IMG/VR virus record: IMGVR_UViG_3300021964_006878 | Location: 21,367 to 85,366 of that record | Source of the DNA: a virus | DNA length: 64,000 bases | Direction: 5' to 3' (one strand) | Shown: positions 25,630 to 63,280 of the stretch, piece after piece | Position numbering within the stretch: the stretch's first letter is position 1 | Layout of the letters: each line of letters opens with the position of its first letter | The notes under the pieces: model-generated | The model's database searches: none | Told to the model about the DNA's origin: nothing | The model's input: the letters and a program-made list of their open reading frames with translations, nothing else | Made by a program: the position numbers and the translations under genes

Positions 25630-25759
25630 AGTTTAACCCTTAAGAGTTTACATCATTGATATAGAAAGATTTTCAGATCATAGGAAGTTTTTTAATTCTG
25701 TATTATTTAGGTTAGTTTGTGTTAATTCACTAACATTTGTTAATTCGTTACTTAAAGAC

Positions 25760-25788
25760 AAAAAAAGAGAGGATAGTCAATCCTCTCT
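25760..25788 (-). terminator. Intrinsic terminator after the DUF4278 gene
   Basis: AGAGAGGA/TCCTCTCT stem plus T-run. Confidence 0.8.
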
Positions 25789-25974: not shown

Positions 25975-26007
25975 GTTGTTACTCCTAAAGTAGTTGGATT
26001 TTTAGGT

Positions 26008-26358
26008 CCGTTCCTTTAGTCGTTTGCGTCCCAATACCACTCACATTCTGGTGCTGAGTCCTTAAGAGTCTCAATCAATTCAATCTTAACTATATTACTA
26101 AGATTAGAATTTTTCTCAATCTTCAGCATAATAGCATCAGTTTGAGTACAGCTGAGTGTTGTATAGAATAATAGTTCTAACATGGGATGAACGATTAGAG
26201 TGATTTTTTCCAGCGACGAATAGAAGTATGAGATGTTTGATAATCTTCTGCAAGTTTTCTAATAGGCAGTGTAGCAAATCATTCTAATTCTCCGTTCCGC
26301 GACTTACTTGCGTCTCCTAATCAAGTCCAAATTTGTTCCAAATTAGGAGATGAACGAT
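26008..26358 (-). promoter_or_regulatory. Double glutamine riboswitch (glnA / Downstream-peptide type aptamers)
   Basis: Two ATCGTTCA-[stem]-CGCAA...GGAACGG units (26292-26358 and 26008-26195) upstream of DUF4278. Confidence 0.85.
26016..26183 (-). CDS. 55 aa ORF nested in the riboswitch stem-loop
   Basis: MLELLFYTTLSCTQTDAIMLKIEKNSNLSNIVKIELIETLKDSAPECEWYWDAND. Confidence 0.65.
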   Translation of the reverse strand: MLELLFYTTLSCTQTDAIMLKIEKNSNLSNIVKIELIETLKDSAPECEWYWDAND

Positions 26359-26364
26359 AGGTCT

Positions 26365-26393
26365 ATTATAGACCTCATACATTATTTAGTCAA
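26365..26393 (-). promoter_or_regulatory. Sigma70-like promoter driving the riboswitch transcript
   Basis: TTGACT-N17-TATAAT; the -10 lies within the palindrome AGGTCTA-TAA-TAGACCT. Confidence 0.8.
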
Positions 26394-26568
26394 GTAGTTC
26401 TGCATTATCGTTTTCTTTCATAAGATTAGATACTACTTTTTCTGTACCGTCAATAACTTTAATCTGATACAGGTTAGACTTCATATACTTTTTAATTTTC
26501 TTGTACTTCTTCTTGACTTGCTCAATACCATCAAAGTTGATATCAACATTCAGATTATTGTCAGTCAT
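26386..26568 (-). CDS. Hypothetical protein
   Basis: ORF track, coupled to the upstream gene. Confidence 0.55.
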   Translation of the reverse strand: MTDNNLNVDINFDGIEQVKKKYKKIKKYMKSNLYQIKVIDGTEKVVSNLMKENDNAELLD

Positions 26569-36317: not shown

Positions 36318-36422
36318 TAAGACCATCAGGGAATGGTGGAGTTACTATTTCCCAGACACCCTAAGTCTGGGATATGAAAGACTGTTGTTTAGACACGCTG
36401 TTTAGTCTTGGTAAGGCGTGTT
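36318..36422 (-). ncRNA. PhotoRC-II-like structured psbA leader
   Basis: Hairpins ACACGC/GCGTGT, TCCCAGAC/GTCTGGGA and ACCAT/ATGGT; complementary AAGACT/AGTCTT and TAGGG/CCCTG segments. Confidence 0.75.
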
Positions 36423-36462
36423 ACAAATGGTTAAGAAATGTGTTGGTTCCGTAACCTCTCGA

Positions 36463-60766: not shown

Positions 60767-60839
60767 TGCTTGTTACAGGAGTCGAACCTGTTTTAATCCT
60801 GTTATGAGCAGGGCGCAGTTACCGAAGTGCTAAACAAGC
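60767..60839 (-). tRNA. tRNA with CAT anticodon (elongator Met or Ile2)
   Basis: GCTTGTT/AACAAGC acceptor, CCTG-CTCATAA-CAGG, ACAGG-TTCGACT-CCTGT. Confidence 0.85.
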
Positions 60840-60842
60840 AAG

Positions 60843-60914
60843 TGGGTCTGCCGAGAATCGAACCCGGTTCATACACTTATAAGGTGTAGGCATTAACCAA
60901 TATGCGACAGTCCC
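60843..60914 (-). tRNA. tRNA-Ile(TAT)
   Basis: GGGACTG/CAGACCC acceptor (one A-A mismatch), TACAC-CTTATAA-GTGTA, TTCGATT T loop. Confidence 0.85.
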
Positions 60915-63208: not shown

Positions 63209-63280
63209 TGCTCGAAGAGGGGATCGAACCCCCGACACCCAGAATGTAACTCTGGTGTTCTACCGCTGAACTATTCGAGC
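63209..63280 (-). tRNA. tRNA-Val(TAC)
   Basis: GCTCGAA/TTCGAGC acceptor, CCAGA-GTTACAT-TCTGG, TTCGATC T loop. Confidence 0.92.

Follow-up and report, generated by a model that had tools for sequence, protein, structure and literature searches.

Riboswitches are usually regarded as compact leaders preceding genes. The glutamine-I riboswitch (glnA RNA, RF01739), as found in the Synechocystis gifB (IF17) leader (PMC6212724), is built from CGUUCA, a P2 hairpin, CGCA, an E-loop, P3 and GGAACGG. The same elements make up the outer aptamer of the locus described here, which like the gifB leader stands ahead of a DUF4278 gene and carries a Shine-Dalgarno-masking helix that competes with the 3′ part of the aptamer. 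For the gifB riboswitch an ON logic has been proposed, in which the masking helix competes with the 3′ end of the aptamer (PMC6212724). The glutamine-contacting bases are known from solved structures (PMC6698751), and the roles given below to the linking strand and the E-loop halves follow Huang 2019 (PMC6698751). Unlike in the glutamine-I riboswitch, P3 in our locus is no hairpin and closes on a second, permuted core; a translated gene lies in one hairpin and an endonuclease stub in another loop, and the window stays below the Rfam gathering score.

Glutamine doublets are described as ordinary tandems (PMC2864571; PMC9481103). The survey in PMC9481103 makes no mention of a nested, permuted or ORF-bearing form, the Weinberg 2010 supplement is silent on tandem topology, and a 2023 list of natural RNA permutations (PMC10085705) contains no riboswitch aptamer. 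No description of a nested, permuted or ORF-bearing glutamine riboswitch was found by a keyword search of the literature, with Ames & Breaker 2011 outside its scope.

The window, a stretch of 64,000 nucleotides from an 85-kb IMG/VR virus record, derives from a T4-like cyanomyovirus, as seen from a PhotoRC-II RNA, four tRNAs and Synechococcus phages as closest relatives. The PhotoRC-II RNA (36337-36433, minus strand, 65.6 bits) and the tRNA genes (2302-2375, 60767-60839, 60843-60914 and 63209-63280 (-)) are usual in T4-like cyanophages. Our best explanation, which we consider likely as a whole, is that the minus-strand stretch 26393-25757 forms a single small transcription unit of promoter, composite glutamine riboswitch, DUF4278/IF17-like gene and terminator, and that the composite riboswitch comprises an outer aptamer, a permuted inner core, a nested gene and two outputs.

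Organization of the locus

The features are collected in Table 1. The original prediction had read the RNA, behind a consensus-like promoter, as two interlocked glutamine-riboswitch units, each running from CGUUCA to GGAACGG, with an ORF inside a stem-loop of the second. Every string that it quoted, the promoter included, is present on the minus strand at its position. In 135 of 186 relatives a TTGACN occurs at most 45 nt upstream. The -10 box forms the centre of a palindrome, AGGTCTATAATAGACCT (26359-26375, minus strand). An inverted repeat of at least 5 bp ending 0-5 nt 5′ of the outer CGUUCA is found in 175 of 186 unique relatives, against 16 of 186 shuffled sequences, with 76 distinct arm sequences among the relatives; candidate roles are those of an operator, of a hairpin in the DNA, or of an insulator hairpin formed by read-through RNA. 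The stop codon of an upstream 60-aa ORF (26386-26568, minus strand) overlaps the -35 box (TTGACTAA), so that the riboswitch unit begins just where the preceding gene ends. No second copy of the layout was found in the 85-kb record.

Table 1. Coordinates of the features on the composite RNA and around it
Feature	Positions	Strand	Remarks
Sigma-70-type promoter TTGACT-N17-TATAAT	26365-26393	-	11/12 consensus matches
Composite RNA	26358-26008	-	
Outer CGUUCA	26351-26356	-	P1 5′ strand CGUUC (26352-26356) pairs with GAACG (26009-26013) as a long-range helix; covariation C-G to U-A in L090, L173
Outer P2 hairpin (P2a), UCUCCUAAU ... AUUAGGAGA	26313-26350	-	directly after CGUUCA
CGCAAGUA, ligand-pocket linking strand CGC(A) plus E-loop 5′ half AGUA	26305-26312	-	CGCA 26309-26312, AGUA 26305-26308; invariant in alignment A2
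P3 5′ strand AGUCG	26300-26304	-	partner CGACU 26018-26022
Inner GGAACGG (P1 3′ strand GAACG plus linchpin G), then AG	26290-26298	-	GGAACGG 26298-26292; G-G-A-G is Shine-Dalgarno-like GGAG
Dead homing-endonuclease stub in inner P1 loop	26195-26289	-	alignment to intact Sf-CH5 gene
Inner CGUUCA	26188-26193	-	P1 5′ strand CGUUC (26189-26193) pairs back to GAACG (26293-26297) as a hairpin
Inner P2 (P2b) 5′ strand UCCCA	26183-26187	-	final base doubles as the first base of the nested ATG
Nested gene, 55 codons plus stop, phrog_504	26016-26183	-	annotated T4-GC_430 in S-MbCM7
Inner P2 3′ strand UGGGA	26029-26033	-	within codons W51-D52
Inner linking strand CGCA plus AA	26023-26028	-	no E-loop half
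P3 3′ strand CGACU	26018-26022	-	U is first base of nested stop codon
CUAAAG, 5′ strand of alternative helix B	26014-26019	-	contains nested stop codon
AAA (3′ half of outer E-loop), then outer GGAACGG	26008-26017	-	AAA 26015-26017, overlaps stop UAA; GGAACGG 26014-26008; site of alignment to the Rfam consensus GAAGGAACG in relatives
CUUUAG, 3′ strand of helix B	25985-25990	-	over 5′ flank and first two bases of AGGAG
Shine-Dalgarno sequence AGGAG of the DUF4278-like gene	25982-25986	-	
DUF4278-like (IF17-like) gene, 55 aa	25807-25974	-	two YRGxxY motifs
Intrinsic terminator	25757-25788	-	9-bp stem, then T run

By its complement of elements, the outer aptamer belongs to the canonical type-I (glnA) glutamine aptamers. 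In 74 ORF-free relatives all four pairs of P2a covary and are 100% paired. The E-loop halves AGUA and (G/A)AA align to the Rfam consensus in relatives, with GAA as the 3′ half in those that have a UGA stop codon. All contact bases named in PMC6698751 are present in the outer aptamer, which may bind L-glutamine selectively. A scan of the window at Rfam gathering thresholds returns no glutamine riboswitch. The two families named by the original prediction, glnA and Downstream-peptide, are both sub-threshold there: RF01739 gives a local alignment of unit 1 alone at 24.8 bits, short of the gathering score of 35, because 267 nt of inserts exceed the span of the model. The glnA assignment is borne out by the ORF-free relatives, which RF01739 aligns end to end as one aptamer at 38-44 bits, with the inner core as a P3 insert of 38-48 nt. 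The Glutamine-II riboswitch (Downstream-peptide, RF01704), defined by an H-type pseudoknot, GGAACGG in the loop of the 3′ hairpin and at least 33 bits, was rejected: the score is 22.4 bits, and pairs of the 3′ hairpin are mismatched.

The second core, as judged from its strand order (GGAACGG-loop-CGUUCA-P2-CGCA), is circularly permuted and enclosed by P3 of the outer aptamer, the other end of which it uses. Its bases CGUUCA, CGC and GGAACGG, with P1, P2 and P3 arranged round one junction, are invariant in 74 relatives. The pocket bases are kept in both cores, namely the C1:G40 pair, the G2:C39 pair with its G18 triple, and the C19:G41 linchpin. An E-loop is absent from the inner core, whose junction strands are just AA and C and whose strand order is non-standard. 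This core would work like the glutamine-I family but is no standard member of it.

The original prediction let unit 2 follow unit 1. The order is right, but the units do not adjoin in the window: a 95-nt stub of an endonuclease gene, overlooked earlier, lies between them. The stub corresponds to an intact gene of Synechococcus phage Sf-CH5 (L001, 1794-2366) with 485 bp missing internally. What remains of that gene is the start region together with the final 27 codons (HTH ...LPIRKLAEDYQTSHTSIRRWKKSL*), mutually out of frame, and the stub thus lacks the intact frame with nuclease domain by which a homing endonuclease (phrog_314-like) is recognized. The ends of the stub are complementary, pair in the minimum free energy (MFE) fold and extend the inner P1 helix. 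In the intact endonuclease gene, the start region and the stop codon likewise lie in paired strands. In contigs from RNA libraries of relatives, 26290 is followed immediately by 26193/26194 and the sequence continues through the nested into the downstream gene, which identifies the stub as an insertion. These contigs, which come from relatives only, cover small shares of the query words and carry no transcript ends, strand or level, hint at transcription of the composite RNA. The units also adjoin (GGAACGGAG-CGUUCAUCCCAUG) in S-MbCM7, ACG-2014d and SynMITS9220M01, where the nested ORF is annotated as the conserved gene T4-GC_430.

The layout recurs in hundreds of contigs from cyanophages, some with nested genes and others lacking them, and is kept at protein identities as low as 65%. 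The part that begins at the second CGUUCA and includes the downstream gene is present in more than 400 phage records, and a protein-anchored scan of IMG/VR gave 499 relatives. In all 80 fetched loci with readable flanks, an ORF lies between CGUU(C/G)AUCCC and UGGGACGCA..GGAACG. Pattern scans independent of the ORF recover the same junction either with a gene in the hairpin or with a plain hairpin, the latter being a compact double of about 85 nt. In a broad pattern scan of cellular genomes the full motif is present in none among the at least 120 matches listed, and one Synechococcus MAG match proved on direct reading to be plain coding sequence. A narrower pattern finds the cassette in 2 of 401 picocyanobacterial genomes (L433, L434). 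Both cellular assemblies have the nested double, a gene in P2a or P2b and a DUF4278 gene; a genomic island or a mis-binned phage contig is possible.

The gene inside the P2b hairpin

The loop of P2b spans 149 nt and is occupied by the nested gene, whose reading frame is open over the 55 codons claimed. The A of its ATG also belongs to the stem, and its final codons (TGG GAC GCA AAC GAC TAA) spell the core, as the original prediction had noticed. The protein matches phrog_504 at 3.7e-25. Its predicted fold is a two-helix hairpin with two conserved Cys (AlphaFold2 pLDDT 78). Nothing credible was found in Pfam, the ESM Atlas returned its own family alone, and Foldseek against the PDB gave no match below an E of 3.

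The conservation of the frame was evaluated on 98 long loops, a pattern sample of relatives chosen independently of the ORF. In 95 of them an intact ORF begins at an ATG in the stem and extends to the 3′ core, compared with about 4% in shuffles, and in 95 of the 98 loci the ATG lies within the stem strand at most 12 nt from CGUUCA. Among 63 unique 55-codon versions, the entropies at the three codon positions are 0.65, 0.27 and 0.91, and the median dN/dS is 0.22 in frame vs 0.83 and 2.58 in the shifted frames. Judged by these substitution patterns, the nested gene is real and under purifying selection. The third-position entropy is 0.047 in codons 51-55 vs 0.911 in codons 2-49; synonymous sites frozen at the overlap with the aptamer core show that selection at the RNA level is superimposed on coding at the end of the gene.

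A possible ribosome-binding site of the nested gene is also part of the fold. AG opens the loop of inner P1 in 86 of 100 ORF-bearing vs 2 of 90 ORF-free relatives (counts that ignore relatedness). The resulting GGAG incorporates the glutamine-contacting G, the linchpin G and the loop bases, and in relatives lies 10-11 nt 5′ of the nested ATG. In the window the distance is about 108 nt with the stub in between; the stub thus shifts GGAG away from the ATG, and this part of the model fits the relatives but not clearly the window.

A second gene family, phrog_6471 (61-68 aa, with a hydrophobic N-terminus and two Cys), occurs inside the outer P2 hairpin, at L001 1550-1756 (Sf-CH5) and in L010, L083, L074 and others. 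The stop codon of phrog_6471 (UAA/UGA/UAG) covaries with the stem strand beside the start, as in UCUUA/UAAGA, UCUCA/UGAGA and UCCUA/UAGGA.

The main rival to the composite riboswitch treats the nested gene as a passenger: the riboswitch would control the DUF4278 gene alone, and the nested gene would sit in an insertion-tolerant loop with no link to glutamine. We regard this as unlikely, and it fares best in the window, where the stub parts GGAG from the ATG. The peripheral loops do take unrelated inserts; the homing endonuclease, for one, lies in the loop of inner P1. P2a or P2b houses two or more ORF families, which hhalign relates to each other at 20% probability, and long plain hairpins are accommodated as well. 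An indifferent insert, however, would not explain the position of the ATG inside the stem strand, a GGAG that is nearly confined to gene-bearing loci, or a stop codon whose identity in the P2a family follows the stem strand next to the start codon. Given these three features, folding and translation are not physically independent.

Covariation and the nested topology

If the RNA is a composite riboswitch with one core inside the other, the first unit must pair with the second through P1. The original prediction had left two options for units sharing one P3: kissing tandem aptamers, or one outer aptamer enclosing a circularly permuted inner one. We read the variable P1 position on the four strands in 192 unique loci. 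It is C,G,C,G in 179 of them. In 11, GCAACGG on the 3′ side of unit 1 occurs together with CGUUGA on the 5′ side of unit 2, and a further two (L090 and L173, the former read directly) add CGUUUA on the 5′ side of unit 1 with GAAACG on the 3′ side of unit 2. None of the 192 loci is discordant or mixed, and inner P1 therewith changes from G-C to C-G in 13 loci. All base pairs are kept only when the 5′ side of unit 1 pairs with the 3′ side of unit 2 and the 3′ side of unit 1 with the 5′ side of unit 2. Hence the side-by-side reading fails, and of the two options it is the enclosed, permuted one that the 13 swaps among 192 loci support.

The common P3 (AGTCG/CGACT) that had been predicted is likewise supported by compensatory pairs in several relatives, such as AGUCA/UGACU (L120, L136, L144, L157), AGUCU pairing with AGACU (L071), and G-U variants. 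There is also a longer class of P3, AGCCGAC(U/A)/(A/U)GCCGACU, in which the closing pair is UA in 27, AU in 19 and GC in 4. This class (e.g. L210, L214) has two C-A mismatches at the fixed A2 columns 46/106 and 51/103, which hints at a conserved non-canonical feature. The predicted pairing of TCCCA with TGGGA in P2b has its counterpart in relatives in the stem variants UCCUAUG/CAUAGGA, CCCCA/UGGGG and UCUAUG/CAUAGA. Across P2a, P2b and P3 in the 74 ORF-free relatives, 95.3% of cells are paired vs 86.6% when shuffled, and 11 pairs have double changes; 0 of 500 shuffles reached the observed values. Together these covariations show the helices and the nested topology that they form.

Two aptamers standing side by side, each with its own P1 and touching through an inter-unit P3, are thus very improbable. 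With four identical strands, most sequences allow both P1 arrangements; the Rfam alignment in the window takes in unit 1 alone, and a local P1 of unit 1 could form first in transcription. In the 13 variant loci, however, both P1 helices of this arrangement would contain mismatches, C-C with G-G or U-C with G-A; AGUA and (G/A)AA, the two halves of the canonical E-loop, belong to different units, and the Rfam model aligns the relatives as nested, above the gathering score. An ordinary side-by-side tandem riboswitch was rejected on the same ground, as the P1 variants pair across units and not within either one.

Least probable of all is a relic, a second aptamer split and killed by an insertion whose halves are conserved merely as coding or recent sequence: the 3′ half does overlap codons W-D-A-N-D and the inner core has no E-loop, but the non-coding 5′ half is conserved equally, synonymous sites are frozen over the core only, P2b stems covary across different ORF families, the inner core is invariant in ORF-free relatives and the layout persists to 65% protein identity.

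Proposed mechanism and comparison with known systems

We return to the composite riboswitch and its expression platform. The downstream ORF is present as predicted. Its protein scores 20.4 bits (E 6.7e-4) against Pfam DUF4278 (PF14105), below the cutoff of 25.3 bits, and matches phrog_545 at 3e-35; of the downstream proteins of relatives, 38 of 39 match DUF4278 at E of at most 0.01, and both YRG motifs are invariant in the family. The hexamer CU(A/G)AAG, which comprises the end of P3 and the E-loop half, is complementary to CUU(U/C)AG over the Shine-Dalgarno sequence of this gene, and the resulting helix B is mutually exclusive with the outer P3, E-loop and P1. At the A/G position, 171 loci, counted regardless of relatedness, have A-U in 61, A-C in 0, G-C in 67 and G-U in 43. 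Among 67 relatives, helix B is 97.5% paired, a share well beyond that of every slid control, and the A/G position pairs there as AU 21, GC 21 and GU 20. On the tree of the downstream gene, independent pairs change the same way in 6.5 cases and the opposite way in 0, out of about 10 independent pairs. The unconstrained MFE fold of the window leader has helix B together with outer P1, P2a, inner P1 and P2b, and RNAalifold on the expression platform gives a 3-bp hairpin and nothing more.

It is not difficult to picture how the two outputs could be set. With glutamine bound, both cores would lock; the nested ATG would then be buried in P2, in relatives the nested GGAG as well, and the nested gene would be off. 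At the same time CU(A/G)AAG would be withdrawn from helix B, the Shine-Dalgarno sequence of the IF17-like gene would be freed and this gene would be on, in agreement with the ON logic proposed for gifB (PMC6212724). In the absence of glutamine, helix B would cover that Shine-Dalgarno sequence and the nested gene would be translatable. A ribosome terminating at the nested stop codon would sit on helix B, so some translational coupling may occur, and a translating ribosome would have the opposite effect on the fold to that of glutamine. Such coupling of translation to sensing, proposed already in the original prediction, is in keeping with where the ATG, the GGAG and the stop codon lie, and the nested gene's translation is probably in competition with nitrogen sensing on the same mRNA. 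Binding of the ligand by each core and the direction of each output are inferred.

In its fullest form, the proposal is a two-site, two-output glutamine toggle, with the nested gene off and the IF17-like gene on at high glutamine, the reverse at low glutamine, and the ribosome acting as an anti-aptamer. The inner core would then be the first circularly permuted riboswitch aptamer from nature, held in P3 of a canonical one, and the nested gene the first with its start site, Shine-Dalgarno sequence and stop built into a sensor. We advance this full version tentatively, as a possibility somewhat short of probable. Several points may count against the best explanation: P2b has 5 bp across a 149-nt loop in which ribosomes may sit, the inner core is without an E-loop, and a P1 loop of 2-5 nt may not permit the linchpin pair.

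The sensor fold here spans a translated gene and has a helix in common with a permuted copy of itself, and standard family scans miss it or read a single aptamer; counts of glutamine riboswitches in marine viromes are likely underestimates. If confirmed, it would add a natural permuted aptamer and a gene-in-aptamer layout to the known RNA arrangements, and would be a ready system for studying how ribosomes compete with ligand-driven RNA folding. For cyanophages it offers a possible route to sense the nitrogen state of the host and to set the ratio of two small proteins, one of which resembles host glutamine-synthetase inhibitors.

Several known systems share parts of this design. Tandem riboswitches, such as the glutamine doublets and triplets (Sherlock et al. 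2022, PMC9481103) and the tandem glycine riboswitch, likewise place two cores for the same ligand before one gene, with a steeper response possible. Whereas tandems stand side by side with their own closing helices, the cores here are nested and have one helix in common. Natural circular permutations of RNA (hammerhead, twister, 5S rRNA, group II introns; PMC10085705) have the same core with the strand order rotated; unlike the listed permutations, the permuted copy here exists solely inside the canonical one.

Group I and group II introns with homing-endonuclease or maturase ORFs in peripheral loops also carry a gene in a loop of a functional fold with a conserved closing stem, and as with introns, a homing endonuclease has invaded the riboswitch RNA. 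In contrast to self-splicing introns, what hosts the gene here is a small ligand-sensing RNA on an mRNA, and the start and end of the ORF belong to the stems and core of the sensor. In leader-peptide attenuation and uORF switches of the trp and ermC type, a ribosome on the upstream ORF similarly sets a downstream helix, and in our locus the nested stop codon lies in the Shine-Dalgarno-masking helix. What differs from the trp and ermC type is the upstream ORF itself, which encodes a conserved 55-aa protein under purifying selection with a metabolite-binding fold superimposed on it.
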